Shown here piece by piece: positions 11,655-47,814 of a DNA stretch of 57,842 nt. The stretch spans positions 1-57,842 of the forward strand of contig JBJHBX010000001.1 of the NCBI GenBank assembly GCA_050485725.1, given 5' to 3'. Below the pieces are notes generated by a model. The model searched no databases. It saw only the letters and a list, made by a program, of their open reading frames with translations, and was not told where the DNA came from. The position numbers and the translations under genes were made by a program. The number at the start of each line of letters is the position of its first letter. Position 1 is the first letter of the stretch. Source of the stretch: Gemmatimonadales bacterium (GTDB lineage Bacteria > Gemmatimonadota > Gemmatimonadetes > Longimicrobiales > Gaopeijiaceae).

Positions 11655-14060
11655 TCATCCACTCCAAGAGGATTGGGGAGCATATGTGAGCAACCGCAGG
11701 GCGTTCGCGATGACCACCAGGGTGCTTCCCTCGTGGAAGAGCACGGCAATCCCGATCCCGAACATCCCCGTGGTGGTGGCGACGATGAGGAGCGCGATCA
11801 CGCCCAGCGCGACGTAGAGGTTCTGGCGGATGATCCTTCTCGCCTGGCGGGAGAGCCCGATGGCGAAGGGAAGCTTGCTCAGATCATCCGCCATGAGCGC
11901 CACGTCCGCCGTTTCCAGCGCGACGGCGGTGCCCGCGCCACCCATGGCGATCCCCACGGTGGCATGGGCCAAGGCGGGAGCATCGTTGACTCCGTCCCCC
12001 ACCATGGCCACCTGCCCGTGCTGATCGAGGAGTGATCGCACGGCGGTCACCTTGTCCTCCGGAAGCAGGTCGGCCCGGACCTCGTCGATCCCCACTTCCT
12101 TCCCGATGGCGGTCCCAACGCCCTGGTTGTCCCCGGTCAGCATCACGAGAGGGCCGATCCCCAGGGCTCGGAGCTGGTCCAGCACGTCCCGGACTCCGTC
12201 CCGGGGCCGGTCCGCGACCCCGATGACCCCCAGCCAGCGCTCACCATGACGGACCGCCATCGTGCTCCGGCCCCGTGCCTGTAGCGCCCCTACGGCCTCG
12301 CGGATTTCTCCGGGAATGGAAATACCCGCCTCCTCCCATAGCCGGAGGTTCCCTACTTCCACCGTGGCGCCGGCGACGTTCGAGCGGATCCCCCGGGCCG
12401 TGAGGCTTTCCAGCTCACCCGCATCCGGCAGCGTCAGCCCCGCCTCTTCCGCCCGCCGCACGACGGCCTGGGCGAGGGGATGCTGGCTTCGCCGCTCCAC
12501 GGCCGCCGCCAAGCTCAGGAGTTCTGCCTCGTCCACGTCGGTGGCGGGCTCGAGCTCCGTGACCTCCGGTTCGCCGATGGTGAGCGTACCGGTCTTGTCC
12601 AGGGCCAGCGCCCGCAGGCCGCCCAGGTTTTCGAGGTGCGCGCCGCCCTTGATGAGCACACCGCGCCGCGCCGCCTGGGCGATCCCGGCCAGCACCGCCG
12701 ACGGCGTGCCCAATGCCAGTGCGCAGGGAGAGGCCGCCACGAGCAGGGCCATCCCCCGATAGAAACTGGTGCTCCAGTCCCATATCCCGAGCAGGGGCGG
12801 GATCGTGATGAGGAGCACATCCGCCACCAGGACGGCCGGGACGAACACCCGCTCGAAACGTTCGGTGAATCGCTGGGTCGGCGCCTTCTGGGTCTGAGCC
12901 TCCTCCACGAGCTGGACCACCCGGTCGAGGGTACGGTCTCCCACCGCTCGGGTGGCCACGATCTCCAGGGCGCCGTCTCCGTTTACCGTGCCGGCGAAGA
13001 CCTCGTCTCCTCCGGTCTTCTCCACGGGAACGGACTCTCCGGTGATCGGGGCCTGGTTCACCGCCGAGCGACCCTGGCGCACCTCGCCATCCACGGGAAT
13101 CCGCTCCGCAGGACGGACCACCACCGTCTCCCCCGGAGCGACCTCCTCCACCGGCACCTCCACCTCCTTCCCGTTCCGCACGACCCGGGCGCGCGGCGGG
13201 GCGAGATCGGCCAGCGCCCGGATCGCGTTCCGGGCTCTCCCCAGGGCGTAATGCTCCAGCGCGTGGGCCAGGGAGAAGAGGAAGAGAAGGAAGGCGCCCT
13301 CGGCCCATTCCCCCAACGCGGCGGCGCCAAGAGCGGCCAGGAGCATCAGGAGCTCGATGTCGAAGGTGACCCGTCCCTTCCGGAGATCGGTGATCCAGTG
13401 CCGCACCAGGTCGAAACCGCCGAACCCGTAAGCCGCGACGTAGAGCGCCACCGCCGCGAGGGGTTCGAACCCCAGCCACCGCTCTCCCACCCAGGCGATC
13501 AGGAGCAGGGTGCCGGCGGCCAGGCTCCACGCCAGCTCCCTGTTCCGGGCATACCACTCCGCCTTCTCGGGAACGGGGTCCCGTGGAGGGCCCTCCGCCG
13601 CCTCGGTGGGAGGCGCGCTGGGATAGCCCATCCCGGCGAACTCGGAGCGGATCCGGTCGATGGAGACGAGCTCCCGGTCGAACTCGACCCGCGCGCGCTG
13701 GGCGGCGATGTTCACCGAGGCGCTCAGGACCCCGTCGATCCCTTCGAGACTCTCTTCGATCCGTCGCGCCGCGTCCTCCCCACGGATGACCCGGATGGGG
13801 AGCACGGCGTGGCCGAAGCGCTCGGTCACCGTCGCGCCCGCCGCATCGGCGATCCGCCGGACCTCGCTGAGTGGAATCAGCGCGGGGTCGTAGTGGAGGC
13901 AGAGAACAGCACCCTCGGGATCCTCCGGATTCAGCACGTGGGTGCGGACGATCCCCTGCGTTCCCTCCAGAATCGTCTCCAGCCGTGCGACACACGCATC
14001 CCGCGCGTCGGGTACGTCCGGGAGGAGGAGGGGCAGGTCCAGGCGAAGGTGATCGGTCAT
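11655..14060 (-). CDS. P1B-type heavy-metal-translocating ATPase (SPC / HEGST motifs, so Zn/Cd/Co type is likely)
   Basis: DKTGTLT, GDGVNDAPAL, a TM motif AASPCALALGTP, and VLFHEGSTLVVIANALRLL. The N-terminal ferredoxin-like domains lack CxxC. The ATG overlaps the czcA stop (ATGA). Confidence 0.9.
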   Translation of the reverse strand: MTDHLRLDLPLLLPDVPDARDACVARLETILEGTQGIVRTHVLNPEDPEGAVLCLHYDPALIPLSEVRRIADAAGATVTERFGHAVLPIRVIRGEDAARRIEESLEGIDGVLSASVNIAAQRARVEFDRELVSIDRIRSEFAGMGYPSAPPTEAAEGPPRDPVPEKAEWYARNRELAWSLAAGTLLLIAWVGERWLGFEPLAAVALYVAAYGFGGFDLVRHWITDLRKGRVTFDIELLMLLAALGAAALGEWAEGAFLLFLFSLAHALEHYALGRARNAIRALADLAPPRARVVRNGKEVEVPVEEVAPGETVVVRPAERIPVDGEVRQGRSAVNQAPITGESVPVEKTGGDEVFAGTVNGDGALEIVATRAVGDRTLDRVVQLVEEAQTQKAPTQRFTERFERVFVPAVLVADVLLITIPPLLGIWDWSTSFYRGMALLVAASPCALALGTPSAVLAGIAQAARRGVLIKGGAHLENLGGLRALALDKTGTLTIGEPEVTELEPATDVDEAELLSLAAAVERRSQHPLAQAVVRRAEEAGLTLPDAGELESLTARGIRSNVAGATVEVGNLRLWEEAGISIPGEIREAVGALQARGRSTMAVRHGERWLGVIGVADRPRDGVRDVLDQLRALGIGPLVMLTGDNQGVGTAIGKEVGIDEVRADLLPEDKVTAVRSLLDQHGQVAMVGDGVNDAPALAHATVGIAMGGAGTAVALETADVALMADDLSKLPFAIGLSRQARRIIRQNLYVALGVIALLIVATTTGMFGIGIAVLFHEGSTLVVIANALRLLTYAPQSSWSG

Positions 14061-22356: not shown

Positions 22357-22767
22357 ATGTCCCGCAACCTCAACAAGGTCATGCTCCTCGGAAACGCCGG
22401 CCGCGATCCGGATCTGCACGAGACGGCTTCCGGCAAGAAGGTCGCCCACCTCTCGCTCGCCACGAGCCGCCGGATCGGACGCGGCGAGGAGGCCGAGCAG
22501 AAGACCGAATGGCACCGGCTCACGTTCTGGGACGGGCTCGCCGACATCGCGGCGGACTACATCCGCAAGGGCGACCGCCTCTACGTGGAGGGGCGGCTGG
22601 AGTACGACTCGTTCGAGAAGAACGGCGTCACGATCCCTACCGTGGAGATCGTCGTCAGCGAACTCATCATGCTGGGAGGCTCACCGCCGCCGGCACTCGC
22701 GGGAGCGGGCGCGCGGACGGGGACCAGCTTCCCGGGAGGCGAGGAGGACGACGACCTCCCGTTCTGA
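22357..22767 (+). CDS. ssb: Single-stranded DNA-binding protein
   Basis: OB-fold sequence NKVMLLGNAGRDPDL...TEWHRLTFWDGLADIAADYIRKGDRLYVEGRLEY, a Gly/Pro-rich linker and an acidic tail ending DDDLPF. Confidence 0.95.
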   Translation: MSRNLNKVMLLGNAGRDPDLHETASGKKVAHLSLATSRRIGRGEEAEQKTEWHRLTFWDGLADIAADYIRKGDRLYVEGRLEYDSFEKNGVTIPTVEIVVSELIMLGGSPPPALAGAGARTGTSFPGGEEDDDLPF

Positions 22768-22827
22768 CCCCCGATAATCGCGCTTGTCATCTTTAAAGTC
22801 GCGATTGTTAAGTCGTAGAATAGAGAA

Positions 22828-22863
22828 ACCGCCTCCGGGGGTCTCCGGGGGCGGTCTCTTTTC
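22828..22863 (+). terminator. Rho-independent terminator after ssb
   Basis: An 11-bp stem (ACCGCCTCCGG / CCGGGGGCGGT), a 6-nt loop, then CTCTTTTC. Confidence 0.7.
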
Positions 22864-23013
22864 AACCGCCTTCGTGGGCGGTATATTCCGATGACGAATC
22901 CGGTCACGTTATCAGGAGAATGCTAATGGCCCAGCATCTGAAGGTGTTGAAATCACTGGAGGGGTAAGCGGGCCAGGAAAAACGACGCGCCTGATAAACG
23001 GCCGGAGTACGCA

Positions 23014-24222
23014 GTGATCACTGCGGATGTGGGCACGGGCGAAGAGGTGCCCCTCCTGGTCGAGGCCGCGACCTGGCTGCCCATCGATCTCCCGCTCCGT
23101 TGGGTCGTCTTTCAGCGGCGATATGAGGTCGCTGCCTCGACGATCCGGAATGACCTCGCCGCACTCCGCTATCTCTACCGCTGGGCCGATCGGCTCGATG
23201 CGTTCCCGCACGGCCTGGAGGGACGACTCGCCTCCGGGGGCTCCCTCACCTACGACGAGTTAACAAGCCTGGCCGCGGCGCTCCGTTCGGCCATCGCCGT
23301 TCGCAAGGAGGGATTGGCGGAAGGAGCGTCTGTTGGCCGTATCGCTCATTCGGTCCGTCTCTTTCTACAATGGACCATCGTGCCCGCGAGCCGCGGTGAG
23401 CCCGGGGCTCCGCCATCTGATCAGGCGCAGATCGAGCGCCAGATCGACAGGATCCTCAAGCCGCTCTCCAAGGGTGCAGGTGCGGGCCGGCGGCAGGAGA
23501 CGCCCGCCGACGAGATCGAGCGGATAGAACGCGTGATTGCACCTGCAATCACCGCGAGCGGCCGCATCGTATCTCCGCTTCGCTGGCACAAGGACAATCC
23601 CTTCAAGAGAACCACACGTCTCCGGAACTGGCTCATGTGGTGTCTCGCCGTCGACGAGGGACTCCGCCTCGGCGAGATCCTGGCCCTGTACGTTTCAGAC
23701 TTCCCGGACGTGGCGGGAACCCCCACGGTCCGTGTCGTTGGGCGCGCGGATAATCCGCTTGATAAGCGAAAGTCGAAGCCGCAGGCGAAAACGCTGGACC
23801 GCGTCCTTCCCGCGAGTCCTCGGGTACAGGCGGCGCTCCGCGCCTACTTGACGAGCCGCCCCCCGGTCGGCCGACGCCCCGGGGGGACCCCGTTCCTCAT
23901 CACCACCGCACGCGGGAACCCGCTGGGCGAGAGCGCGGCGGGTAGTATCGTAGAGGTCCTGCGCGGTGCCGGTCTCGCGTCCGGGCTGTGCACCTTCCAT
24001 GGGCTCCGACACGCATGGGCCGAAGATCTCGCGGAGGCACTCTTCGCAAAAAACCGGAATGAGCGCGAAACCGTGATCGCTAAGCTCCGGGCACTCGGCG
24101 GATGGGCGCTCACTTCCAGGATGCCCGCCCACTATGCGGATGGCGCGATCGCCCGTGACGCCATGAGGGACATGCGGGAGAGACAGTCTCGGCTCTTCAA
24201 CTTCGTGGAGGTGGCCGGATGA
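23014..24222 (+). CDS. Tyrosine recombinase 1 of a trio (GInt GinA-like position)
   Basis: LRLGEILAL (Arg I), HGLRHAWAEDL (HxxR) and LGGWALTSRMPAHYAD (catalytic Tyr region). GTG start. Confidence 0.85.
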   Translation: MITADVGTGEEVPLLVEAATWLPIDLPLRWVVFQRRYEVAASTIRNDLAALRYLYRWADRLDAFPHGLEGRLASGGSLTYDELTSLAAALRSAIAVRKEGLAEGASVGRIAHSVRLFLQWTIVPASRGEPGAPPSDQAQIERQIDRILKPLSKGAGAGRRQETPADEIERIERVIAPAITASGRIVSPLRWHKDNPFKRTTRLRNWLMWCLAVDEGLRLGEILALYVSDFPDVAGTPTVRVVGRADNPLDKRKSKPQAKTLDRVLPASPRVQAALRAYLTSRPPVGRRPGGTPFLITTARGNPLGESAAGSIVEVLRGAGLASGLCTFHGLRHAWAEDLAEALFAKNRNERETVIAKLRALGGWALTSRMPAHYADGAIARDAMRDMRERQSRLFNFVEVAG

Positions 24223-25766
24223 GGATGGATGCGAGCCATGCGGGACTCCCGCTCCCGTTCCGGGGAGATGAGCCCGTAGCCCTGCCGGCGGCGGCTCGGA
24301 CCAAGTGCGGCCAGGTCTTCGACCCTCGAGCAGACCTCTGGGTGGTGCGCAAACACGCCGATGGAGGAAACACGCTTCACTTCGATTGGACGAAGCTGGC
24401 GGGCTTCTCGCGAGAGGCGGTGGGCCTGGCGAAGCGGATTCTCGCAGACCGGGCGCCCTCCTACGCGGGCACCACGACGTGGAACGACTTCTACATGCTG
24501 ATGCGCTTCGCGGCGTGGCTCCCAGGTTACGCCGCACGTGCAGGCACGCGGGAGCTCCTGCCGTTCCGGTGGCGTGCCCTGGACACGCCTGGCTTCGCCG
24601 CCTTCCTCGACCACGGCCTTAGCACCGCGCAGAAGGGGAACGACTTCGCGCGTTTGCGGGATCTCTACCGCTGGGGGGTCGACGCTCTCCGTCACCCCAG
24701 CTTCGCTCCCGATGTCCTGGTGGCGATCGAAGGGACGAGAGCTCCGGGGAACTCCAAGGGGCAGGCGGTGCGGGCTGGCGACGCCACGAAAGGAGAACTC
24801 GACGCCCGCGAACTCGAACTCATCCTCGACGCTCTGCGCGAGGGGAGAGGGCGGGCCACCGATCGGGCGACTGTCGCCCTGTGCCTCGCGCTCGGCCGGA
24901 ACAGCAATCAGTACGTGCGCTGTGTGAACGGCGACTTGGTCCGCTACCCCTATCCCTCTATCGGTCCGCTCGCCCAGAACGGGAAGCGCCACCTCTACGA
25001 ACTTCGCATCCCGCGCCAGAAGAAGCGCGGATCGCGCGTCGAGTACCGATCCTGGCCGCTCGACGAGCGCGTGGGACTCATGCTCGACGCGGTCCAGCGG
25101 GGTGGCGGCAAGGACCCTCTCCTTTGGTGGGTGCACGAGGAGAGTAAGGGCCAGCCCGATCTGGCGCTGAATACGATCCTGAAGCGGTGGGCGCGAGATG
25201 CTCGGATCATCTCGCCGCGGACCCGTCGCCCGATCGTGCTCAACCCGCGGCGCTTCCGCGTCACCCTGCTGACGAACGCGGCCGACGAAGGCGCATCCCC
25301 GATGAAGCTGGCCGAACTGGCGGATCACACGGATCAGCAGAACGTCAAGGTCTACGTCGACAACTCGCCGGGCTACCTCGTGCGTCTCTCCGATCGCGTG
25401 GATCAGATCTATGATCCGCTCGTGAAGCGATTCGCGGGGAAGGTGGCCTCGCGCGCTGATGCCAAGCCTGGGGTGACGGGGCGCGTGATCCCGGGCGCGA
25501 CCCCGACCCTTCCGGTCCTGGACACCGGAGGGATTGGCGTGTGCGGCGCCGGCGGGCCGTGCCACCGGAACCCTGTCGTGTCATGCTATAGGTGCAACAA
25601 GTTCGTCGCCTGGAAGGAGGGGCGGCACGAGGATGTGGTCGTGGCGCTGGAGCGGGCCATGGAGCAGATGAGCCCCCGTATCGCACTCCTGCTTGCCCCG
25701 AGTCTGGCGGCGGCACGTGAGGTCGTAGCTGCGATTCAGGAGGAAACTACCCTGGAGGCCGAGTGA
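24219..25766 (+). CDS. Tyrosine recombinase 2 of the trio (GinB-like position), divergent, with a C-terminal Cys cluster
   Basis: ATGA overlap with the upstream gene. It contains ALCLALGRNSNQ, RRFRVTLLTNAADEG and LADHTDQQNVKVYVDN. The C-terminus reads CGAGGPCHRNPVVSCYRCNKF. Confidence 0.75.
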   Translation: MRMDASHAGLPLPFRGDEPVALPAAARTKCGQVFDPRADLWVVRKHADGGNTLHFDWTKLAGFSREAVGLAKRILADRAPSYAGTTTWNDFYMLMRFAAWLPGYAARAGTRELLPFRWRALDTPGFAAFLDHGLSTAQKGNDFARLRDLYRWGVDALRHPSFAPDVLVAIEGTRAPGNSKGQAVRAGDATKGELDARELELILDALREGRGRATDRATVALCLALGRNSNQYVRCVNGDLVRYPYPSIGPLAQNGKRHLYELRIPRQKKRGSRVEYRSWPLDERVGLMLDAVQRGGGKDPLLWWVHEESKGQPDLALNTILKRWARDARIISPRTRRPIVLNPRRFRVTLLTNAADEGASPMKLAELADHTDQQNVKVYVDNSPGYLVRLSDRVDQIYDPLVKRFAGKVASRADAKPGVTGRVIPGATPTLPVLDTGGIGVCGAGGPCHRNPVVSCYRCNKFVAWKEGRHEDVVVALERAMEQMSPRIALLLAPSLAAAREVVAAIQEETTLEAE

Positions 25767-27778
25767 GCATGCGGAACCTGGACCCGGTCGCGTCGGCCGC
25801 GGACGCCTACGTGGAGCGCGGCCGTGCCGCCCTGCGGAACAAGCTCCCTGGCGCCGACTTCGATGCCGCAGCGTGGGACGCGAAGCCCCTCTGGCGAGAC
25901 GTGTCCGACAAGGTCGCCTGGCTGTACTTCACCCTCGAAGGGTCGACGGTAACCCCACTTCCGCACGGATTCGCCCGCGTCATCAAGGCATACGTTGCGC
26001 TTCAGAGCGAGTCGCTCAGCCGGCGGAAGCAGAAGGCCGACGCCGCCCGGTGGCTGTGGGCGGCCGTCTCCGAGCGGCTCGGTCAGGATGCCGGCGCCCG
26101 ATTCGTGTGGGCGGACCTCCAGTCGATCGACGTGCGCCGCGCCACGCAGATCATGGAAGAGCGCGGTCTGGGGTCGAAAGGGCGGTACAACGTCGACACC
26201 GCTTTGCGCACCATCCTCCGGGAACTCGCGGGTACCGGCGTGTGCCCGTCCCTGCCGCTCGGGCCGCGCTTGCCTCGTGGCCGCGATGGCAATCTGGTCC
26301 GCGTGGACGAGGAGGTCGATCTCGTCCCGCCCACGCTACTGGCGGCGCTCGGCGACATCTTCGCGAAGTACGCCACCTCTTGGGAAGATCGCCTGATGTC
26401 GGCCGTCATCGCGCTGGCCCTCGCCACGGGACTGCGCTTCAACGAACTGAGCACGATTCCGCTCGATCCGATCGAGGAGGTGGAGCGGGATCTCCGCGGT
26501 CCGGACGGCAAGATCAAGCGCCACAAGCTCTGGCGGGTGCGGCGCTACAAGTCGAAGTCGTCTCGCACCGGCGGGGGGGGCCGAAAGTCAGAGGAGGCGC
26601 AGTGGATGACCGCGACGCAAGCCGAGCTCGCCCGTGAAGCGGTCCGGCGTATCCGGGACCTGACCGCGGCGTCGCGCAGGGTCGTAGCCGCCCTGGTGCG
26701 CGCTGGGAGGTGGGCGCTGCCGGCACCGTACACTCCTTCCTCCTGGCTGGAGGCGAGCGAGATCGCGAACGTGCTCGGGGTCAGCCGCGATATGGCCACC
26801 AAGATTCTGCGGGAGGAAGGCGGCGAGGCAGATCCGGATGCGCCGCGCGCAGGTATGCTCCGCATGAGCGGCGCCTCGCTGGAGGCATACATGAACGCGC
26901 GACTGAAGCCGAATGATCTGGTCCTCATGATCGGAGCGAACGGCCGGCCGATCCCGCTCTCCGAGGGTCTCCTTTGTCTCCGCGTCAATGAGACGCATTC
27001 GGCAAAGGCCACGCTGTCCCTCCCCCAGAAGCTGACCGCCTCGATGCTTCAGAACTGGCTGGTCGGGTCGACCGACAAGCCGAATGTCTTCCAGCGCATG
27101 GCCAAGGCGGGCGTTCGATTCGCCGGCGTCGATCCGGAGAAGAAGGTGCTCAGCTCGCACGACTTCCGCCGCTGGTTCGCCACCTCGGCGCTTCGTGCCG
27201 GTGCCACGGAGTTCGACCTGATGCGATGGCAGGGCCGCGAGCACATGGGGGACCTGGGCGCGTACGACTATCGGACGATGGCGGACCGGGTCGAGGCGGT
27301 GAAGCGTGACATCAAGAGCGGGAAGCTCCAGGGCGTGCTTGCGACAACGTACGTCCAGCTTGCCGAGACCATCCGGGATCAATGGCTGGACGATGCGGTC
27401 ACGTCGCTCCACGTGACGCCGATCGGCCTCTGTGCAAAGGACTTCGGCTCGGGGCGCTGTGAGTACCAGGTGAACTGCTTCAACGCCTGCGAGCATCACC
27501 TCGTACAGATCACCGATCCGAAGACTCGGCAGCAGGTCGTCCAGCTCAAGTGCCGGAACGAAGAGGTCGTGAGGCTCAACGAGGAGCGTGCCCTCCGTGA
27601 GGGCTACGAGCTCGCATCGCAGTGGCGCCAGGAATACGATCAGACGATCACCTACATGGATCACCTGCTCACGGCCAAGCCGGACGAGGCGGGATACGTC
27701 CGTGCGCCGGAAGGTGCGCCATCGCGCTATCTCCCGGTGGACCAGGTAGGACCCATGGAACTACACATGGAGGTTTGA
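25763..27778 (+). CDS. Tyrosine recombinase 3 of the trio (GinC-like position), with a C-terminal Cys cluster
   Basis: GTGA overlap with the upstream gene. It contains ALATGLRFNELS, HDFRRWFATSALRAG and REHMGDLGAYDYRT. The C-terminus reads CAKDFGSGRCEYQVNCFNACEHH. Confidence 0.8.
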   Translation: MSMRNLDPVASAADAYVERGRAALRNKLPGADFDAAAWDAKPLWRDVSDKVAWLYFTLEGSTVTPLPHGFARVIKAYVALQSESLSRRKQKADAARWLWAAVSERLGQDAGARFVWADLQSIDVRRATQIMEERGLGSKGRYNVDTALRTILRELAGTGVCPSLPLGPRLPRGRDGNLVRVDEEVDLVPPTLLAALGDIFAKYATSWEDRLMSAVIALALATGLRFNELSTIPLDPIEEVERDLRGPDGKIKRHKLWRVRRYKSKSSRTGGGGRKSEEAQWMTATQAELAREAVRRIRDLTAASRRVVAALVRAGRWALPAPYTPSSWLEASEIANVLGVSRDMATKILREEGGEADPDAPRAGMLRMSGASLEAYMNARLKPNDLVLMIGANGRPIPLSEGLLCLRVNETHSAKATLSLPQKLTASMLQNWLVGSTDKPNVFQRMAKAGVRFAGVDPEKKVLSSHDFRRWFATSALRAGATEFDLMRWQGREHMGDLGAYDYRTMADRVEAVKRDIKSGKLQGVLATTYVQLAETIRDQWLDDAVTSLHVTPIGLCAKDFGSGRCEYQVNCFNACEHHLVQITDPKTRQQVVQLKCRNEEVVRLNEERALREGYELASQWRQEYDQTITYMDHLLTAKPDEAGYVRAPEGAPSRYLPVDQVGPMELHMEV

Positions 27779-28224
27779 TGCCACGCCCCCCGTATCCGGT
27801 CCAGCGCGCACGCCGCGTCCTCGCCCAGTGGATTGCGATCGCGAAGGAGCGACCGGCCGATGAGGCACCGATCACGGTCGAAGCGGCGCAACGTGTACTG
27901 AGGGAGAAGGACCCGAAGCTCGTGGCGAGTCGCCATACCCTCTGGAAACACGGCATCACCCGTTTGCTGGAGCAGGGGGCAGAGGCCCAGAAGGCGGGCG
28001 TCGGCGAGACCGCACGAGCCAGCGAACGGCAGGGCTACGTGGAACGCTTTGAGGCCATGAATGCTCGCATCCGGGAGGTAGAGGCCCGGAACCGAGAACT
28101 GCTCGGGCAGATCGCGACGATGACCTTCAACGCGCGGCGGCTCAACGTCAATGCGGCGGAACTCCGTGCGCCCATGCCGAAGCCGGACCGATCGAGATCC
28201 CGCGCGGGCCGCCGGAACGCATGA
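27778..28224 (+). CDS. Small helical protein, the fourth gene of the recombinase operon (GinD-like position)
   Basis: MPRPPYPVQRARRVLAQWIAIAKERP... with a coiled-coil-like centre (RFEAMNARIREVEARNRELLGQI). The start overlaps the upstream stop (TGATG) and the stop overlaps the next start (ATGA). Confidence 0.65.
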   Translation: MPRPPYPVQRARRVLAQWIAIAKERPADEAPITVEAAQRVLREKDPKLVASRHTLWKHGITRLLEQGAEAQKAGVGETARASERQGYVERFEAMNARIREVEARNRELLGQIATMTFNARRLNVNAAELRAPMPKPDRSRSRAGRRNA

Positions 28225-30401
28225 TAGCGACGAGTGCGGTGGCCGCGAGCAGGCGGAGCGCAACGAGCGTCGCCGGTGTGGTCGTGGAGACCCTCGCCCT
28301 CGCGACCATGTCCCAGCCGCTGTCGGTCATCCGCGTGGAGACCGGTTCGAGGCGCGTCGTGCGGTGTGTGGGCCTGGAGATAGGTGAACTCGCGGATGGG
28401 ATGCATGTCGAGCTCGATGGACACTGGGAGGTGGACGAGCGGTACGGACGGCAGTTTCGGATTCGCCGGGTCCGCTCCACACTCCTCCCGAACGAGGTAG
28501 AGGGGATCTCCGCCTATCTCGGCGCCGTGGTCCCGGGAATCGGCCGGCGGCGGGCCGCCACCCTCGTGAAGGTCCTTGGCGTGGAGGCGCTGGGGAAACT
28601 GCGTGCGGCTGAGAGTGACGCCCTGGTCCGGCAGATCTTTCCAGGCTCCACCGGTTTGCAGGTGGTCGCCGGCCTCGAATCTTGGCGCCGGGCGGAGCGC
28701 GCCGCGGCAGCGTCGGCCCGCCTCACGGAGCATCTCCTGCGCGCGGGCGTGACGCCGCGCCTGGCACGTCGCATCGTGGGGTACTTCCATGAGGCCGAAG
28801 CGGCGGAGGTCGCGGCTCTCCGCCATCCATACCGGCTACTCGACGTGCCCGGTCTCGGGTGGACTCGCGCCGACGCTGTGGCCCGTCTGCTTGGGGTGGA
28901 CCCTGCCGCACCCGAACGACTGCTCGGAGCCGCCCGATGGGCGCTTGCCGAGGCAAGGCGACATGGCCACAGTGGTGCGCCGGCCCGGTGGATCGGACAG
29001 CGCATCGGGGTGCATACGGGCGGCGCTGCGCCTCCGGTGGCCGTGCGTGCGGCCCTACACCGGCTCCGGGAGGATGGTCACGCGGTCGAGCGCGGGGGTG
29101 TGCTCCTCGACCCATCCACGGCCGTGGAGGAGTGGCGCCTCGCTGTCGTCGCGAGTCGGCTCCTCGCCGAGCCGACGATTCTCACCGAGGAGCACGTGCA
29201 GATCGTCCGGGATGCAATCGGCGCCGGGAGGCTCAACGACACTCAGGCGGACGCCGTCTGGGCGGCCGTGCGTCACCGGCTGGCCGTCCTGACCGGCCGG
29301 CCGGGAGCGGGGAAGACGACGACGCTTCGGGTCCTGCTGGACGTGTATCGCAAGATCGGTCTCGAGGTGCGGCTGGTAGCGCCGACGGGGAAGGCGGCGT
29401 CCCGCGCCCAGGAGGTGACCGGCGTGCCCGCCTGCACCATCCACCGCCTGCTCTCGGAGGGACGGGTGAGCGCGGATGCCGTCGTCATCGACGAAGCGTC
29501 GATGTGCGACCTCGAGCTCGCCGCCCGCCTGCTGGGCGCGCTCGATCCGGCGCGAACGCGTGTGCTCGTGGTCGGGGATGCCGATCAGCTTCCGAGCGTG
29601 GGGCATGGACAGGTGCTCGCCGACCTGATCGCCTCGGGACGGGTGCCGGTTACTCGCCTCACGCAGGTGTACCGCCAGGGGGAGGGAAGCCGCCTGCTCG
29701 CCAACGCGCACGCCCTGCTGGACGGCGCGCCGCTGGACCTCGCGGAGGGCGGCGACTGGCGATGCGTCCTGCTGGATGACGCCGTTCTGCCGGGTGACAT
29801 GGCACGAACGGTCGGCGCGGAGTGGCGCGCGCTCTCCGCGGCATTCGACCTGGCCACGGAGGTCCAAATCCTCGCACCGATGAAGCGAGGCGTCTGCGGA
29901 GTCGATCGCCTGAGTCCGCGGGTCCAGGCAGCCCTCACAGCCGGCTCGCGCGAAGGCCCTGCGGTCGCCGGTGGGAGCCGCGCACGGGTCGGCGACCGGC
30001 TCGTGATGACCCGAAACGGCTACGATCTGGAGGTGCCCGTCTTCAACGGCGAGCAGGGGACGGTGACGGATGTCAGCGGGTCCAGCCTGACGATGCAGGT
30101 CGATGCGGAGCGATCCGTAACGCTCCGTGGCGCTCAGTGCCTCTTCGTGCGCCTCGCCTGGGCGATGACGGTTCACCGGAGCCAGGGAAGCGAGTATCCG
30201 GCCGTCATCCTTGCATACCATCATGTCGCGCACGCGCCGATGATGGACCTGGGCGTCCTGTATACCGCCATGACGCGCGCCCGCCGACGCTTCGTCCTCT
30301 TGACGACGCCGTCCGCCCTCGCCATGACGGCGGCCAAACACGCCAGACGGCAACGGTGGACCGGGCTGGCGACGTGCCTCCGAGAACTAATGGGAGCCTG
30401 A
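28221..30401 (+). CDS. RecD2/TraA-like SF1B DNA helicase
   Basis: Helicase motifs GRPGAGKTT, VVIDEASM, VVGDADQLPSVGHG, TVHRSQGSEYPAVIL and LYTAMTRARRRFVLL. The N-terminus has an OB/HhH-like region. Confidence 0.9.
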   Translation: MIATSAVAASRRSATSVAGVVVETLALATMSQPLSVIRVETGSRRVVRCVGLEIGELADGMHVELDGHWEVDERYGRQFRIRRVRSTLLPNEVEGISAYLGAVVPGIGRRRAATLVKVLGVEALGKLRAAESDALVRQIFPGSTGLQVVAGLESWRRAERAAAASARLTEHLLRAGVTPRLARRIVGYFHEAEAAEVAALRHPYRLLDVPGLGWTRADAVARLLGVDPAAPERLLGAARWALAEARRHGHSGAPARWIGQRIGVHTGGAAPPVAVRAALHRLREDGHAVERGGVLLDPSTAVEEWRLAVVASRLLAEPTILTEEHVQIVRDAIGAGRLNDTQADAVWAAVRHRLAVLTGRPGAGKTTTLRVLLDVYRKIGLEVRLVAPTGKAASRAQEVTGVPACTIHRLLSEGRVSADAVVIDEASMCDLELAARLLGALDPARTRVLVVGDADQLPSVGHGQVLADLIASGRVPVTRLTQVYRQGEGSRLLANAHALLDGAPLDLAEGGDWRCVLLDDAVLPGDMARTVGAEWRALSAAFDLATEVQILAPMKRGVCGVDRLSPRVQAALTAGSREGPAVAGGSRARVGDRLVMTRNGYDLEVPVFNGEQGTVTDVSGSSLTMQVDAERSVTLRGAQCLFVRLAWAMTVHRSQGSEYPAVILAYHHVAHAPMMDLGVLYTAMTRARRRFVLLTTPSALAMTAAKHARRQRWTGLATCLRELMGA

Positions 30402-30964
30402 TGGGACGAAACCCTGAGCGCGAGCGCGAAAGGGTCCTCCAGAAGGTGCGCGCGTATCTGGCGCGTGCCACCATGGATCGCTCGCTGGAGCTGACGTATG
30501 ACGCGATCGCCGCGGCGGCGGGTGTCTCGCGCTCGCACTTCGCGAAGACCCAGGAGCCCGACATCCTGGAACTCGTCTCGGAGATCCAGGCGCTCCGCGC
30601 AGAACGCACAGGGGCGAGTGCCGATGCGCCGCCTATGGCTTCGCCCAGCGGGGCGACACGGCCGGGGAGCGCCAAGAACGACGTGGCGGACCTCTCCGAT
30701 TCCGCGCTCGCGGCCGACATCCGCTACACTGTCCAGGAACTCGCCCGCCACACGCAGGTCTGGCTGGGGCATCACCGGGCGCTGGCCTCGATCGACGACG
30801 CCCCGCTCGCGCTCTACGACCTCGACCGAATGCTGGGGAGCCTGTACCGCGACAGGGAGCGCCTGGCCGCGCTCATCTCCGAACGGGATCGACGCGCCCA
30901 GGGCCATCCGGCGGAGCCGCAACTTGCCATCGACCTGACGGGGGCAGGCCATCCCGGGACCTGA
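30401..30964 (+). CDS. Hypothetical 187-aa protein, the last gene of the coupled operon (possible N-terminal HTH)
   Basis: The ATG overlaps the helicase stop (TGATG). TYDAIAAAAGVSRSHFAK is HTH-like. No recognisable family. Confidence 0.55.
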   Translation: MGRNPERERERVLQKVRAYLARATMDRSLELTYDAIAAAAGVSRSHFAKTQEPDILELVSEIQALRAERTGASADAPPMASPSGATRPGSAKNDVADLSDSALAADIRYTVQELARHTQVWLGHHRALASIDDAPLALYDLDRMLGSLYRDRERLAALISERDRRAQGHPAEPQLAIDLTGAGHPGT

Positions 30965-30966
30965 TC

Positions 30967-31014
30967 ACTCCCAGTTCGCCGAGATCGGCAGTTTGATCTC
31001 GGCGAACTGGGAGT
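30967..31014. repeat. Perfect 20-bp inverted repeat with an 8-nt loop
   Basis: ACTCCCAGTTCGCCGAGATC-ggcagttt-GATCTCGGCGAACTGGGAGT. It starts 3 nt after the orf187 stop, and no T-tract follows it. Confidence 0.9.
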
Positions 31015-31019
31015 CCCCC

Positions 31020-31051
31020 TTGACCCCGTACTATGGTACAGGGTGTATCGT
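31020..31051 (+). promoter_or_regulatory. MerR-type mer promoter/operator
   Basis: TTGACC (31020-31025), the dyad CCGTAC-TATG-GTACAGG inside a 19-20-nt spacer, then GTATCGT. This layout resembles the Tn21 merO sequence TTGACTCCGTACATGAGTACGGAAGTAAGGT. Confidence 0.7.
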
Positions 31052-31083
31052 GTGATCGTACCCGTAGGCGGAGGCAGTCTGAT

Positions 31084-31515
31084 ATGCAGGGCGAGACCAT
31101 CGGCGTGGTGGCGCGGCGATCCGGTGTCGGAATCGAGACGATTCGATTCTACGAGCGGGAGGGGCTGATCGAGGCGCCCCCGCGCAGTGCTGCGGGATAC
31201 CGCCGGTATCCGGAGGAGGCGATTGAGCGGATCCGCTTCATCCAGCGCGCCAAGGATCTGGGCTTCTCACTCGCTGAGGTCCGCGCGCTCCTGGACCTGC
31301 GAGTGCGCTCGGACGCCGACTGCCATGACGTGCGGCTCCGCGCAGAGAGAAAGATCGCCGACATCGAGGCCCGGATCCGGGACCTGGGCGCGATGCGTGA
31401 GGCGCTCGCGGAACTGACACGGGCCTGCTCAGCGGGTAAGACCACCTCCGAGTGCCCGATCCTTGAATCGCTCAGCCGGGCCTGGAACGGCTCGCAGACG
31501 ACTACGAAGGGATGA
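31084..31515 (+). CDS. merR: Hg(II)-responsive MerR regulator, co-directional with merTPA
   Basis: IGVVARRSGVGIETIRFYEREGLI is the HTH. The conserved Cys positions are present (DADCHDV, and ACSAGKTTSECP). Confidence 0.9.
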   Translation: MQGETIGVVARRSGVGIETIRFYEREGLIEAPPRSAAGYRRYPEEAIERIRFIQRAKDLGFSLAEVRALLDLRVRSDADCHDVRLRAERKIADIEARIRDLGAMREALAELTRACSAGKTTSECPILESLSRAWNGSQTTTKG

Positions 31516-31907
31516 CACGCACGAACCTGAAGGACATGGACGCACCAGGAGTGGAGGTGCGTACTCGCACCTCGATCGGCCTGGGTGCGGCGCTGCTCGC
31601 CGTGCTGGGCGGGCTCGGGGCCTCGCTCTGCTGTATCGGCCCGATTCTCTTCGTGACCCTCGGAATCGGTGCTGGCCTGGCGAGCACCTTCGAGCCGCTC
31701 AGGCCACTCTTCACCGCGATCACCGTCGTCGCACTCGCCATCGGTTTTTATGTGGTCTACGGACGGAGGCCTGCACCCGTGTGCGGTCCGGATGGCGCCT
31801 GTGCAACCCCGATGCGGCGGGTCCGTGATCGCGTGGTGCTGTGGATCGCCACGCTGGTGGCGCTGCTCTTCTGGAGCTTCAACTACTGGTCGCTCCTTCT
31901 GGTCTGA
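31512..31907 (+). CDS. merT: Mercuric ion transport protein MerT
   Basis: The TM1 Cys pair in GASLCCIGPILFVTLG, then FEPLRPLF, and a second Cys pair in PVCGPDGAC. ATGA overlap with merR. Confidence 0.8.
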   Translation: MTRTNLKDMDAPGVEVRTRTSIGLGAALLAVLGGLGASLCCIGPILFVTLGIGAGLASTFEPLRPLFTAITVVALAIGFYVVYGRRPAPVCGPDGACATPMRRVRDRVVLWIATLVALLFWSFNYWSLLLV

Positions 31908-31920
31908 ACCTTTCCGTCGC

Positions 31921-32313
31921 ATGGAGATGCCTCTCATGTGCAAGACTGCCCGACTGCTCGCGCTCGCATCATCCCTTGCCCTGGCGTCCTCGGTCGCCGC
32001 CTGCGGTCGTGGTGGCGCCGAGCCGCAGGGGAACGTGGATGCGATGCCGGTCTCGCCGCCCAGTGCGGCCGCGGAGCCCACGACGACCGCTCGACTCACC
32101 CGTGTCGAGTTTCACGTGGAGGGGATGACGTGTGGCGGATGCGTGATCGGCACCCGTGCCGCTCTGAAGAAGCTGGACGGCGTGCGGGAGGCCGATGCGA
32201 GTTACGAGAACTCCAGCGCCTGGGCACAGTACGATGCAACCCGCGTCACCCCGGAGCAGATGATCGCCGCGATCAAGGAACTCGGCTACACGGCGACGGT
32301 GGTGCGGACCTGA
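31921..32313 (+). CDS. merP: MerP-like periplasmic Hg-binding protein (lipoprotein form, HMA domain)
   Basis: A lipobox in LALASSVAAC, a long linker, and an HMA fold with GMTCGGC. Confidence 0.8.
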   Translation: MEMPLMCKTARLLALASSLALASSVAACGRGGAEPQGNVDAMPVSPPSAAAEPTTTARLTRVEFHVEGMTCGGCVIGTRAALKKLDGVREADASYENSSAWAQYDATRVTPEQMIAAIKELGYTATVVRT

Positions 32314-32345
32314 GGCCCGCTCGCGACCTCTGCAAGGAAACTACG

Positions 32346-34022
32346 ATGAAGGTGGAACTTCGTATCGAAGGGATGACATGCCTCGCCTGCGCGCGTCATG
32401 TGGAATCCGCGCTCCGGGGCGCACCAGGCGTCCAGCAGGCGCACGTGGACTACGCTACTGGGCGCGCAACGGTCCTGGCCAAGGACGCGGTGCAGGAGCG
32501 AGACCTCCTGGATGCCGTCGCGGGGGGCGGGTATAGGGCGGTCGCCGAGCCGTCGGCTGCTCCCACGTCGCGCCCCGAGGCCACCATGCCCGTCGGGAGC
32601 GATGCGGATGGTGATGCCGATTTCGATCTTCTGGTCATCGGGACCGGTGGGGCCGGAACCGCCGCCGCGATCAGGGCGGCGGAGATCGGCGCCCGGGTGG
32701 CGGTCGTCGAGGGTGCTGACGTGGTCGGTGGCACCTGCGTCAACATCGGCTGCATTCCGTCGAAGTATCTGATCGAGGCCGCGCACCACTTCCACACGGC
32801 GCGGACAATCTTCCCCGGGATCGCGGCTTGTGATCCTCATCTCGCCTGGGCCGAAGTGATCCGGCGGAAGCGCGAAATCGTCGACCGGCTCCGTCAGGAG
32901 AAGTACCTGGACGTGCTCGCCTCGTATCCGGAGATTACGCTCCTGCACGGCCGTGCCCGGCTCACGGCGCCCGGGCGAGTGGATGTGTCCGGTCGTGAGC
33001 TACGTGCGGCTCGCGTCGTGGTCGCCACGGGGACGAGGCCGGGCATGCCGCCTGTGCCGGGGCTGAACGAGGCGGGGGCACTCGACAGTACGTCCGTGAT
33101 GGAACTCGAGTCGCTCCCCGACTCGATGATCGTGATCGGCGGCGGATCCATCGGGCTGGAGCTGGGCCAAGCCTTCGCGCGCTTCGGGGTCAAGGTCGTG
33201 GTCCTGGAAGCCGCCGTTCGGATCCTGATCGGAGAGGATCCGGAGATCTCGGACGTGCTGGCCGACTCGCTTCGCGCCGAAGGAATCGAGGTCCATACGG
33301 GCGTGCAGGTCACGCGCGTCGAGCGCGACTCCCAGGGCTTCGTCGTCCACATGCGGGACGGGAGTGTCGCGGGACAGCTCCGTGCGGAACAACTCCTTAT
33401 AGCCACCGGACGCATCCCCAACACCGAGGACCTGGGCCTTGAGGCCGTAGGGGTGGAGATCGATGCCCGAGGCTTCATCCGCGTCGATGAGTACATGCGC
33501 ACTACGAGCCCGAGTGTCTTCGCCGGCGGAGACGTGACAGGCGGTCCCGGATACGTCTATGTGGCGGCCCTGGGAGGCGGCATCGCCGCTCAGGCCGCTC
33601 TCGAGGATCGGGCGGCGGAAGGGGCGATCGCGATAGACCTGAGTGCGGTCCCCCGAGTCGTCTTCACGGACCCGCAGGTGGCGGCAGTCGGCATGTCCGA
33701 AGGTGAAGCGACAGCGGCAGGGATCAGCGTCCAGGTGACCACGCTGCCCGTTTCCGCGATGCCTCGCGCGGTCGTTTCACACCGGGGCCGCGGCGTGATC
33801 AAACTCGTCTCTGAGACAGGTACCGATCGTCTGCTCGGCGCTCACGTCGTCGCGCCGAACGCCGGCGACCTGATCGGCGAGGCGGTGCTCGCCGTCCGAT
33901 TCGGCCTGACCACCAGGGACGTGGTCTCGACGCTCCATGCGTACCTCACCTGGGGTGAGGGACTCAAGCTCGCCGCCCAGACCTTCACCAAGGACGTCGC
34001 GAAGCTCTCTTGCTGTGCGTGA
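32346..34022 (+). CDS. merA: Mercuric reductase MerA with an NmerA domain
   Basis: N-terminal GMTCLAC, FAD-binding LLVIGTGGAGTAAA, the redox-active GGTCVNIGCIPSK, and a C-terminal Cys pair in KLSCCA. Confidence 0.95.
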   Translation: MKVELRIEGMTCLACARHVESALRGAPGVQQAHVDYATGRATVLAKDAVQERDLLDAVAGGGYRAVAEPSAAPTSRPEATMPVGSDADGDADFDLLVIGTGGAGTAAAIRAAEIGARVAVVEGADVVGGTCVNIGCIPSKYLIEAAHHFHTARTIFPGIAACDPHLAWAEVIRRKREIVDRLRQEKYLDVLASYPEITLLHGRARLTAPGRVDVSGRELRAARVVVATGTRPGMPPVPGLNEAGALDSTSVMELESLPDSMIVIGGGSIGLELGQAFARFGVKVVVLEAAVRILIGEDPEISDVLADSLRAEGIEVHTGVQVTRVERDSQGFVVHMRDGSVAGQLRAEQLLIATGRIPNTEDLGLEAVGVEIDARGFIRVDEYMRTTSPSVFAGGDVTGGPGYVYVAALGGGIAAQAALEDRAAEGAIAIDLSAVPRVVFTDPQVAAVGMSEGEATAAGISVQVTTLPVSAMPRAVVSHRGRGVIKLVSETGTDRLLGAHVVAPNAGDLIGEAVLAVRFGLTTRDVVSTLHAYLTWGEGLKLAAQTFTKDVAKLSCCA

Positions 34023-34377
34023 GAGCACTGGTCAGGCGTGGGGATATGCCGACATCAGGGTGGATGATGCTGCTACGTATTTTGTGAAATAACTGGACGA
34101 TGTGACGAATAACGACACGGCGTTATCGGATAGTACCCTTCTGAAGGGGTCCAGCGGCGTGGGGTCGGTTTCTTCCGGCCTCACGCCGTTTCCTTGGGCC
34201 TCCTCAGCAACGTTCACCGCCGGGCATCCCTTCCCTCCGGCGACAACGCATCCAGCCCCCTCCGGTCGCCAGCGGAGAAGAGTGGATCGGGTGATCCGCG
34301 CGCGCTCGGCTGCCGGGTTCTCCTCTCCCGGTTCGACTGAGCGCGCGGCACCGCCACCATCTCAGGAGGGGATCATC

Positions 34378-35067: not shown

Positions 35068-35652
35068 ATGTCCGCGACTCGCTATTCCATCCCGCCGTTC
35101 ACGACCACGGTCCGGAACGACCGCCGCTTTCTCCACTGTGTCGCATGCGGCACCTGGCAGAAGGAACGCTCCTACGCCCTCTGCTCCGAGTGCTACCGGG
35201 TCAACGGATCCCTCGACCGAGGTTTCTTCACCTGCTTCGCCCGTCACGCGGTTCGGGAGACTCCGGAATACAGCTACCGGTCCCATCCCGAGTTCGACCG
35301 CGCGAGCCGGATCTACGCCCGACGCTGGAAGAGGGAGCGGGACCTCGCCGAACTCGACGCCCGGATTCCCGCCTTCCGGTACCGGCCTGCCGACGCTGAC
35401 CGCCGGGCGCGTTACGCCGAGGAGCCCTACGACGGGCTCGGGTCCCACGACCTCAGCGACCTGCTCGAATGGCAGATGCACGGGGTCGAGCTTCCCCGGC
35501 CCGAGCGATCCACCCATCGGGAGCTGACCGACGCCGAGATTGCGCGCTGGGATGCCCAGGTGGATGCCTGGGCCAGGAAGCGGGGCGTGAACCTCGCGCA
35601 CGAGCCGGCCCCCGAGGATGGGGAGTCCCGGCCCCAAGGCCCGGACGGATGA
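35068..35652 (+). CDS. Hypothetical protein with an N-terminal CxxC...CxxC zinc-ribbon-like motif
   Basis: HCVACGTWQKERSYALCSECY. The ATG is preceded by ACGGAGG. Confidence 0.5.
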   Translation: MSATRYSIPPFTTTVRNDRRFLHCVACGTWQKERSYALCSECYRVNGSLDRGFFTCFARHAVRETPEYSYRSHPEFDRASRIYARRWKRERDLAELDARIPAFRYRPADADRRARYAEEPYDGLGSHDLSDLLEWQMHGVELPRPERSTHRELTDAEIARWDAQVDAWARKRGVNLAHEPAPEDGESRPQGPDG

Positions 35653-35857
35653 TCCGGGTCGGTCGCCTTCCCGGCGCCTGCCGGAAGGTGTTCGCCCTTC
35701 GGTCGAACATCCCTGTACGGGATCTCCCACCTTCAGCGGTCGTGTAGGCAGGAGGGCCCTCCGCGGAGAGTCGATAGCGCAGGGAGCGAGCAATGGGAGA
35801 GGGCCCTCGCGCCTCCTGCGACCTCCGCCTTCACTTCGACCGTTTGAGTCCCCCGCT

Positions 35858-36175
35858 ATGAACCCGTCGCCGTACTCCTCACGACGAAAGCCGCGCAAGG
35901 TCCGCTACCACGACCACGAGTGGGAACGGGTCGTCCGGCATGCGCAGGCGTGCGGTCTGCCGACCGCCACGTTCGTTCGCAGGGTCTCCCTCGGAGCCAA
36001 GCCGAGAGCCCGGCGCAACCGCACCGAGAACGACCTCATCCTCCAGCTCGGACGGATCGCCGCCGACCTCCATCGGCTCGTGAATCTCAGTGAGCAGGGG
36101 AACGCTTCCTCGTCGTCGGCCGATCTGGAACGCCTTCTGAACGAGATCCTCGCGGCGGTCCGCAGGATCGGCTGA
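35858..36175 (+). CDS. mobC: MobC-like relaxosome accessory protein (RHH type)
   Basis: VRYHDHEWERVVRHAQACGLPTATFVRRVSLG...LILQLGRIAADLHRLVNL matches the MobC pattern (RHH followed by a GxNLNQ-like helix). Confidence 0.6.
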   Translation: MNPSPYSSRRKPRKVRYHDHEWERVVRHAQACGLPTATFVRRVSLGAKPRARRNRTENDLILQLGRIAADLHRLVNLSEQGNASSSSADLERLLNEILAAVRRIG

Positions 36176-47340: not shown

Positions 47341-47814
47341 ATGTACCGCATCCCCATCTACCAGGTAAAGCTCGTCCGCGACGGAAGCCTGGCCACCGAA
47401 CGCAAGAAGGTCGGTGCTCCGGAGGCCGCCGCGAGCGTGCTGCACCAATACTTCGACGAAGCCGACCGCGAACACTTCGTGGCGCTCCTTCTCGATACCA
47501 AGCACCAGATCATCGGCATCAACACCGTGACCGTCGGCGTCCTCGACGCTTCCCTCATCCACCCGCGCGAGATCTTCAAGCCCGCGATCCTCGCCAACGC
47601 CGCCGCCATCATCCTCGCCCACAACCATCCGAGCGGGGATCCGACTCCATCCCCAGAGGATCGGGCTGTCACCCGGCAGACGGTGGAAGCGGGACGATTG
47701 ATCGGGATCGCGGTGCTCGACCACGTGATCGTAGGGGACAAGCCCCGTTACTTCAGCTTCCTCGAAGCAGGAGCCATGGACTTCAACGTCGGGTTCGCCA
47801 GGCGAGCGGCATAG
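47341..47814 (+). CDS. radC: RadC-like JAB/MPN domain protein
   Basis: ILAHNHPSGDPTPSPEDRAVTRQTVEAGRLIGIAVLDHVIVG. Confidence 0.9.
   Translation: MYRIPIYQVKLVRDGSLATERKKVGAPEAAASVLHQYFDEADREHFVALLLDTKHQIIGINTVTVGVLDASLIHPREIFKPAILANAAAIILAHNHPSGDPTPSPEDRAVTRQTVEAGRLIGIAVLDHVIVGDKPRYFSFLEAGAMDFNVGFARRAA

Follow-up and report, generated by a model that had tools for sequence, protein, structure and literature searches.

A predicted GInt-family integrative element with a RecD2-type helicase and a GinD-related protein coupled to its recombinase operon

Results

Genes of the six-gene block

The locus described here lies on contig JBJHBX010000001.1 of a Gemmatimonadales bacterium (assembly GCA_050485725.1), of which we analysed positions 1 to 57,842, a stretch of 57,842 nt which we refer to as the window. 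Six co-directional open reading frames (ORFs) on the + strand, spanning 23014-30964 and overlapping by 1 or 4 nt, encode three tyrosine-recombinase-fold proteins, a small protein, a helicase and a second small protein (orf187), and they form the 5' core of an 11,377 bp integrative element which we regard, with near certainty, as a complete member of the GInt family of genomic islands occupying window positions 22768-34144. The GInt architecture itself is known; what is new is a GInt subfamily with an added module of a helicase and a putative adaptor.

The original prediction, made from the sequence of the window, had given the ORFs as 402, 515, 671, 148, 726 and 187 aa, joined by the strings ATGA, GTGA, TGATG, ATGA and TGATG, and all of these were recovered exactly; a purine-rich stretch precedes each of the five junctions. 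The features of the block are given below (pTROUS1 is a Pseudomonas aeruginosa plasmid; HTH, helix-turn-helix; SF1B, superfamily 1B).

22926-24222, + strand: ginA-like tyrosine recombinase (PF00589 match of 34.3 bits, past the cut-off; 28% identity to integrase 1 of pTROUS1, E 2e-21)
24219-25766, + strand: ginB-like tyrosine recombinase, 515 aa, with a C-terminal Cys-rich motif (weak PF00589 match; E 7e-24 to pTROUS1 integrase 2)
25763-27778, + strand: ginC-like large tyrosine-recombinase-fold protein, 671 aa (invariant R225, K265, H466, R469 and Y501)
27778-28224, + strand: ginD-like small protein, 148 aa, with an N-terminal HTH-like domain and a C-terminal helical region (E 4e-5 to a 149-aa pTROUS1 protein)
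28221-30401, + strand: RecD2-family SF1B helicase, 726 aa, Walker A lysine K365 (Pfam, NCBIfam, structure-sequence alignment)
30401-30964, + strand: orf187, 187 aa, with a GinD-paralogous N-terminal HTH, a disordered linker and a C-terminal helical hairpin (hhalign, AlphaFold2)
30967-31014, no strand: 20-bp hairpin between the core genes and the mercury resistance (mer) cargo (stem 30967-30986 / 30995-31014, 8-nt loop)

PF00589 matches all three recombinases, its curated cut-off being passed by GinA alone, and GinB scores 161 bits against NF041502 (integrase_1), below the 350-bit cut-off. The catalytic Arg and Tyr residues ascribed to the three proteins in the original prediction are present on the family alignments: GinA conserves R..HxxR..W/H..Y, GinB conserves Arg-I, Arg-II and Tyr (R..xxR..Y) but not His-II, and in GinC the R225-K265-H466-R469-Y501 set is invariant, together with four Cys, in six family members. 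Conserved cysteine clusters at the GinB C-terminus (window 25440-25560) and at GinC C557-C576 (27431-27490) are probably zinc-binding. A 39-nt stretch, 74% identical between ginA (23147-23185) and ginB (24637-24675), encodes an N-terminal motif common to both, ND..LR.LYRW, which suggests that the N-terminal domains of the two proteins are paralogous. At other loci (L001, L014 and L041) ginA starts at the ATG corresponding to 22926, behind AGGAG, and encodes 431 aa, whereas in the window one extra G in a G-run near 22961-22964 breaks the frame and leaves 402 aa from GTG 23014; this could be an inactivating or attenuating mutation, or a homopolymer error. Gene callers put the start of ginC at ATG 25769 (669 aa). 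PDB sequence searches with GinA, GinB and GinC gave nothing usable, word-indexed homologue searches with orf187 and GinC returned one near-identical protein each, and GinD had no match in Pfam or other protein family libraries.

The helicase had been called RecD/TraA-like, of which the RecD half, as a RecD2-type SF1B enzyme, stands and the TraA half does not. It carries the Pfam domains OB_YrrC, HHH_RecD2, AAA_30, SH3_13 and UvrD_C_2, its residues 167-718 align with Deinococcus radiodurans RecD2 (3E1S, E 1e-64), with which it shares the domain order OB, HHH, 1A/1B, SH3, 2A, and the SF1B motifs (Walker A, DE, GDxDQLP, YRQ, TVHRSQGSE, TRAR) are all intact, as had been predicted. Against the NCBIfam RecD2 model TIGR01448 it scores 446 bits, short of the equivalog cut-off of 500 and far above its scores to TraA or TraI models; a TraA-type relaxase-helicase was rejected, the protein having a RecD2-type N-terminus and lacking a relaxase domain. 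The AlphaFold2 (AF2) model has a predicted local distance difference test score (pLDDT) >90 over most of the protein. Besides identical copies the nearest homologues are 36-47% identical, and the clade they form, at 428 bits or more, stands above a plateau of housekeeping RecD2 proteins at about 310-330 bits, so scored, a diverged clade of RecD2-type paralogues; unlike RecD2 itself, it is tied to recombinase-trio elements in every member examined. Homologues at 425 and 410 bits lie in unrelated contexts without ginC-ginD, and plasmid searches matched the helicase to generic RecD2 only, at no more than 35% identity.

The N-terminal 62 columns of orf187 are homologous to the GinD family (hhalign, probability 95.3%, E 2e-8), and on this profile comparison its HTH domain is a distant GinD paralogue. 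An exhaustive phmmer search of 1.84 billion representatives recovered an orf187 family of 46 proteins at E <=1e-3, one of which is a fusion to the helicase (P0015). The AF2 model of orf187 has a pLDDT of 85.8, and Foldseek with this model gave no significant match, with weak TetR-like ones only. Orf187 matched nothing in Pfam or PADLOC, a genome contig scan with an orf187 pattern found no relatives, and plasmid searches found nothing.

Upstream of ginA, a terminator-like hairpin with a T-run (22828-22855) is followed by a promoter-like site, TTTTCA-17-TATATT (22859-22887), and no promoter-like site occurs within the six-gene block. The view of the block as one polycistronic, coupled unit fits the gene overlaps and the single upstream promoter-like site, but the six genes do not stand alone, being part of an 11.4-kb element. 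The hairpin said to close the operon has the perfect 20-bp stem described, is the sole perfect inverted repeat in the element, and starts 2 nt after the orf187 stop rather than 3 nt. It is followed not by a T-run but by a TTGACC -35 box and the mer operator, and an Rfam search gave no match. We rejected it as a conserved functional site because 95%-identical variants have two uncompensated mismatches and most of the divergent relatives lack an equivalent directly after the orf187 homologue; it is element-specific and no canonical terminator.

Compared with a 95%-identical variant, the ratio of non-synonymous to synonymous substitution rates (dN/dS) is 0.12-0.37 across all six genes. It is 0.29 for the helicase and for orf187 alike, inside the range of the gin and mer genes (mer cargo 0.20-0.32) between the two element variants, and by this measure the pair is under purifying selection comparable to that on the gin genes. 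Across window 23014-34022 the synonymous rate (dS) against the L014 copy is a mosaic, 0.17-0.21 in ginA, ginB and merA and 0.02-0.08 from ginC to merP, which suggests recombination between element variants.

Boundaries, target site and mobility of the element

The window on either side of the element resembles an integrative and conjugative element (ICE), whose single-strand-binding protein gene, ssb, is the integration target. The remaining features of the element and its target are as follows (GC, fraction of G+C).

22357-22767, + strand: ssb of the host ICE-like island, integration target (PF00436 SSB in identical copies; empty-site contigs)
22759-22767, + strand: attL core CCGTTCTGA, the last ssb codons and stop (overlap with the empty site in L040)
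22768-22925, + strand: left end, GC 0.53, with CCGATAA, hairpin and T-run, and promoter-like site
31015-34022, + strand: cargo, with mer promoter/operator, merR 31084-31515, merT 31512-31907, merP 31936-32313 and merA 32346-34022 (Pfam families in identical copies)
34023-34144, + strand: right end, GC 0.50, with TTATCGG; attR core CCCTTCTGA at 34136-34144 (copy comparison, empty site)

In two contigs (L040 and L042) an ICE backbone 96-99% identical to that of the window has ssb joined directly to window 34145 onwards, and the empty site in L040 aligns to the window as two blast segments overlapping by 9 nt, the att core. Occupied and empty sites in such similar backbones, together with this overlap, therefore place the predicted element at 22768-34144. 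The attL core at the ssb stop and the attR core at the right end form a 9-bp imperfect direct repeat, one base different, which a plain pattern search missed; attR was located via other copies and the empty site. Both ends are AT-richer (the right one, of 122 bp, more so) than the element at about 0.67 GC, and a CCGATAA motif lies near each crossover site in inverted orientation (CCGATAA 22771-22777, TTATCGG 34123-34129).

Searching with proteins encoded in the window recovered the element (94-100% identity) downstream of at least four further ssb alleles and with differing right flanks, and the similarity among copies spans the ssb stop to window 34144 every time. Insertion is at the ssb stop codon in 5/5 contexts, which share the same attL junction and leave the ssb product unaltered, and a divergent relative (L030) likewise lies behind ssb. 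Near-identical copies differ in the attR core (CCG/CCA/CCC-TTCT-GA/AA), which reads CCGTTCTGA, CCATTCTGA, CCATTCTAA or CCCTTCTGA in the window and at the right ends of L014-L018, and that of the window (CCCTTCTGA) is the ssb end of another host (the attL of L015). The window attR core looks like the footprint of an earlier integration site, a link we infer from the published observation that GInt att sites acquire bases from former targets. Among the loci retrieved, no contig held an attI junction, and plasmid searches gave no near match to the element. Judged from these sequence comparisons, the element is discrete, recently mobile and GInt-type, and moves mercury resistance between backbones as a GInt inserted at the ssb of another mobile element.

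Insertion sequences (IS) interrupt some of the copies and relatives, an ISL3 in ginC (L041, 11171-12411) and an IS21 in the helicase gene (L030, 13231-15602), and two metagenome copies (L017, L020) have fragmented helicase ORFs, maybe through assembly errors.

Relationship to GInts and other multi-recombinase elements

GInts carry a co-oriented and co-transcribed ginABCD operon at the 5' end, then cargo, and their 3' end is short and AT-rich, with imperfect repeats of 10-17 nt on the flanks; they insert with high specificity and excise as a circular intermediate, for which all four gin genes are needed (Bardaji 2017, PMC5385486), and six at the end of ssb have been reported, with repeats such as CCGTTCTAAT and GTGCCGTTCT (Bardaji 2017, PMC5385486), which the 9-bp att core of our element resembles; the published ssb-GInts include a 9.7-kb Opitutus terrae element at Oter_2289 and those of R. 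solanacearum PSI07 and S. baltica BA175. The assignment of the first four genes to a ginABCD-type operon, already proposed in the original prediction, was supported by gene order, size gradient, colinear homology to pTROUS1, insertion at the ssb 3' end and short imperfect repeats. On pTROUS1 the order is a plasmid ssb, four genes encoding 428, 520, 689 and 149 aa, and a type ISP restriction enzyme; the window's GinA, GinB and GinD match the counterparts in colinear order (E-values listed above), whilst GinC finds remote relatives on plasmids, and GinC family members from three divergent loci (L013, L024, L027) match the 689-aa pTROUS1 protein at E 1e-27 to 1e-35. Homology to the Gin proteins was judged via the pTROUS1 element rather than the P. 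stutzeri DSM 4166 and P. syringae 1448A type proteins, and a search for the attR of the pTROUS1 element did not find it.

The tripartite GInt structure is present as gin operon, merRTPA cargo and 122-bp AT-richer right end, and the element shares with GInts its four 5' genes (recombinases of about 400, 500 and 670 aa and a small protein of ~150 aa), metal-resistance cargo, and insertion overlapping the end of ssb without change to the protein. It differs in the RecD2-type helicase and GinD-paralogous protein coupled to ginD, in its small size of 11.4 kb, in that the two genome-collection relatives are metagenome-assembled genomes (MAGs) of Gemmatimonadota, and in GinC, where the R-K-H-R-Y set is complete and includes the first Arg, a residue that Pseudomonas GinC is reported to lack (PMC5385486). 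That a helicase and a sixth gene lie outside the described GInt core, as the original prediction had supposed, was borne out, no helicase being mentioned in those portions of the literature on GInts and SEs (strand-biased circularizing integrative elements) that were available to us. A comparative paper on Akkermansia records RecD2 alongside xerD on islands specific to a lineage (lineage C), with no analysis of the two (PMC9241678), which may be a related case.

Like our element, SEs use a tyrosine-recombinase system of four proteins, including a large one with the recombinase fold and a small HTH/coiled-coil auxiliary, and integrate at specific targets; for them too, copy-out via a replicated figure-eight intermediate has been proposed. 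Their gene order is intA-tfp-intB-srap, and membership was rejected on this order, the large GinC/Tfp-like protein being third here and not second; SE and GInt proteins also cluster separately in the literature, and no helicase is described in SEs. Tn554 has adjacent tyrosine recombinases and a small third protein, TnpC, reported to be similar to GinD, but it has two recombinases (TnpA, TnpB), and was rejected on the three recombinase-fold genes present here. Recombinase-in-trio (RIT) elements have recombinases of similar size and terminal inverted repeats. Although they too carry several adjacent tyrosine recombinases, their three recombination proteins (RitA-C) come with no GinD-like fourth, and membership was rejected given the 402/515/671 aa gradient, the fourth, ginD-like gene, the short direct repeats and an inverted end motif of only 7 nt.

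The helicase-orf187 module in divergent relatives

The original prediction had been staked in advance on the helicase and orf187 being syntenic with the recombinases in related elements, and it survived: in 8/8 further lineages of the helicase clade the helicase gene lies in synteny with recombinase genes and with ginD, and in 6/8 orf187 does too. Counting the window, the helicase follows ginC-ginD in nine divergent lineages and orf187 is present in seven, once fused to the helicase. Synteny here means ginC-ginD directly upstream or in the same element, contig permitting. Seven of the eight loci came from helicase homologue look-ups, whilst L030 came from a GinC-based scan of species genomes, which yielded two relatives, both Gemmatimonadota MAGs. 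The gene contents of the eight loci are as follows.

L008: 463/586/668/132 aa, helicase, 212 aa (orf187 homologue)
L010: 418/520/616/169 aa, cargo, helicase, 206 aa (orf187 homologue)
L013: 499/666/165 aa, helicase, 189 aa (orf187 homologue)
L024: GinC, 143 aa, helicase-orf187 fusion of 919 aa
L027: 440/575/657/134 aa, helicase, 180 aa (orf187 homologue); beside a truncated rtcB
L029: 482/594/758/135 aa, helicase, MgsA-like gene, 174 aa (orf187 homologue)
L030: ssb, GinA-D, helicase with IS21 inserted; Gemmatimonadota MAG
L047: GinC, GinD, helicase, no detectable orf187

The genes of about 200 aa that follow the relatives' helicases are orf187 homologues (28-45% identity, E down to 1e-27), and the overlap of the ginD stop with the helicase start recurs, at 4 nt in the window, L013, L027 and L030 and at 11 nt in L024. 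The helicase is 40-53% identical across lineages, against 14-36% for the recombinases (GinC 14-36%). Targets differ (ssb, the truncated rtcB of L027 and the 3' end of tRNA-Gln in L010), as does the cargo, which includes MacB transporters, MerR/TonB/CDF, MmeI restriction-modification with ThiF/JAB, SIR2 and mer. In L010 the cargo lies between ginD and the helicase, and the helicase pair is inside the element, about 150 bp from attR; this element is integrated at the 3' end of tRNA-Gln (745-816), between ispE and prs, and its attR is a partial tRNA copy of about 24 nt (12809-12832). In L047, at 2405-3171, the full-length GinD (170 aa) is preceded by a tandem partial copy of its N-terminal HTH (84 aa). 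No relatives were found in viral contigs.

The host island

The rest of the window (1-22356 and 34145-57842) is a Gram-negative, high-GC, ICE-like heavy-metal island, which looks from its gene content like an ICE or an integrative and mobilizable element. It encodes an AraC-type HTH protein, DUF932, ssb, a NikA-like protein (35618-36175), a relaxase (44572-46335), RadC (47341-47814) and an Abi_2-like protein, together with two czc-type resistance-nodulation-division (RND) systems, a P-type ATPase, an ACR3-like SBF transporter and an rve-type IS (2442-3467). Among PLSDB plasmids, no match to this relaxase reached E 1e-30 or better. On the - strand at 50158-52761 lies a pair resembling a cyclic-oligonucleotide-based anti-phage signalling system (CBASS), with a SMODS nucleotidyltransferase of 360 aa and a SAVED-domain effector of 505 aa. 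A DdrB-like protein (PF12747, E 1e-35) is encoded at 53899-54396, in the same island as the canonical ssb; DdrB proteins are known from Deinococcus as alternative single-strand-binding proteins.

Discussion

The explanation which we favour, with a probability of about 0.6, is that of a GInt-family element in which the coupled helicase and orf187 serve recombination. On its own, the proposal that the pair is an element-intrinsic module tied to recombination is likely, given the recurrence of its position and coupling. Recombination of attL x attR and of attI x attB by GinABCD has been demonstrated for Pseudomonas GInts, and GinABCD would catalyse the same reactions here, the attI junction of the excised circle reading right end, CCNTTCTGA, left end. 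Orf187 would act as an adaptor whose GinD-like DNA-binding domain brings the helicase to the element ends or to the recombination intermediate, where the 5'-3' helicase would unwind the element duplex starting at the recombinase-made nick, and this unwinding would let a figure-eight be replicated and a circle be released as a copy (copy-out). In canonical GInts and SEs, host helicases would presumably serve for the same step. We read the GinD-paralogous domain and the translational coupling to ginD as pointing to a recombination complex rather than an origin.

Copy-out would be in keeping with two published points: several GInts circularise and leave no empty attB (PMC5385486), and the SE model calls for a single-strand-bridged figure-eight to be replicated, together with unidentified host factors. 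The specific role of the helicase in copy-out unwinding is a tentative proposal to which we give somewhat less than an even chance. TraI/TrwC relaxase-helicases and the Rep-Hel proteins of Helitrons pair a cleaving enzyme, covalently attached to DNA, with a 5'-3' SF1B helicase which unwinds the mobilised strand. Our element would differ in using tyrosine recombinases (3'-phosphotyrosyl, free 5'-OH) and a separate helicase polypeptide with its own putative adaptor, and the broader proposal, that helicase and GinD-like adaptor may be the missing unwinding or replication part of GInt/SE transposition and the tyrosine-recombinase counterpart of those machines, is doubtful.

Several observations weigh against the recombination-serving explanation, which is itself built on sequence comparison. 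The AF2 model of the concatenated helicase and orf187 (pLDDT 89, predicted template modelling score 0.71) gives no interface measure, and the empty attB in L040 and L042 is compatible with a never-occupied site and with conservative excision alike. The correlation between the divergence of the helicase and that of GinC is weak (r 0.37, Mantel p about 0.13), as may result from exchange of the module between elements; an MgsA-like gene separates helicase and orf187 homologue in L029, and L047 has a helicase without detectable orf187, where the GinD duplicate may be an alternative supply of a second GinD-like domain. As far as the contigs reach, no helicase lies downstream in metagenome relatives with ~30% GinC identity (L033, 6.9 kb; L034/L035, 1-2.3 kb; L037, 3.6 kb), and the pair is missing in the pTROUS1 element and an Azospirillum locus. 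A minimal pGInt0 with ginABCD only integrates and excises (PMC5385486), making the pair dispensable in canonical GInts. The absence of the pair from other GInt relatives and the function of pGInt0 therefore mark it as an accessory module of a subset and not as universal core.

Integrative elements commonly replicate after excision, and rolling-circle replication of ICEs uses a helicase. Helicase and orf187 might by analogy be a maintenance module which replicates the double-stranded circle after excision and prevents its loss before re-integration, and the pair is indeed conserved and element-intrinsic. The circles of pGInt0 are moreover abundant enough for rescue in E. coli (PMC5385486). Yet the 11.4-kb element has no initiator, primase or iteron-like origin, and the GinD-paralogous domain and ginD coupling favour a recombination complex, so that we consider this alternative unlikely. 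An improbable one is that the pair is ordinary cargo for anti-phage defence or anti-defence, occupying the first cargo slot after ginD. GInts often bear restriction-modification or defence cargo, the pair is missing from many GInt relatives, and the helicase matches PADLOC RecD-type models (typeIV_RecD 1.4e-52, PDC-S68, RecD_like), but these matches are confined to the generic helicase core and orf187 has none, no relatives were found in viral contigs, orf187 has its N-terminal domain in common with GinD, and the same position and ginD overlap recur despite 14-36% recombinase identity and differing cargo. It is very improbable that the helicase aids horizontal transfer via co-resident conjugation machinery, by analogy with the RecD-like domain of TraI/TraA relaxases: although its core is weakly similar to TraA_Ti and TraI models, the window element sits in an island with a relaxase and a NikA-like gene, and no transfer route is known for GInts, the helicase has no relaxase domain, its N-terminus is the RecD2 OB/HHH module, and other copies lie behind chromosomal ssb genes by tsaE/tsaB/rimI with no conjugation genes in view.

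GInts and SEs, which may move by cut-out or by copy-out, spread resistance and virulence genes. If the broader proposal is true, multi-recombinase elements would move by replicative copy-out in which the nick is passed to an element-encoded 5'-3' SF1B helicase, and GInts without a helicase would depend on a host helicase for the same step. Orf187 defines a new small protein family, and relatives of the element are placed in MAGs of Gemmatimonadota, a phylum absent from the GInt hosts listed in the portions of the literature available to us. A subfamily with its own RecD2-type helicase and putative adaptor, and with known att sites, would offer a genetic handle on the unwinding step.

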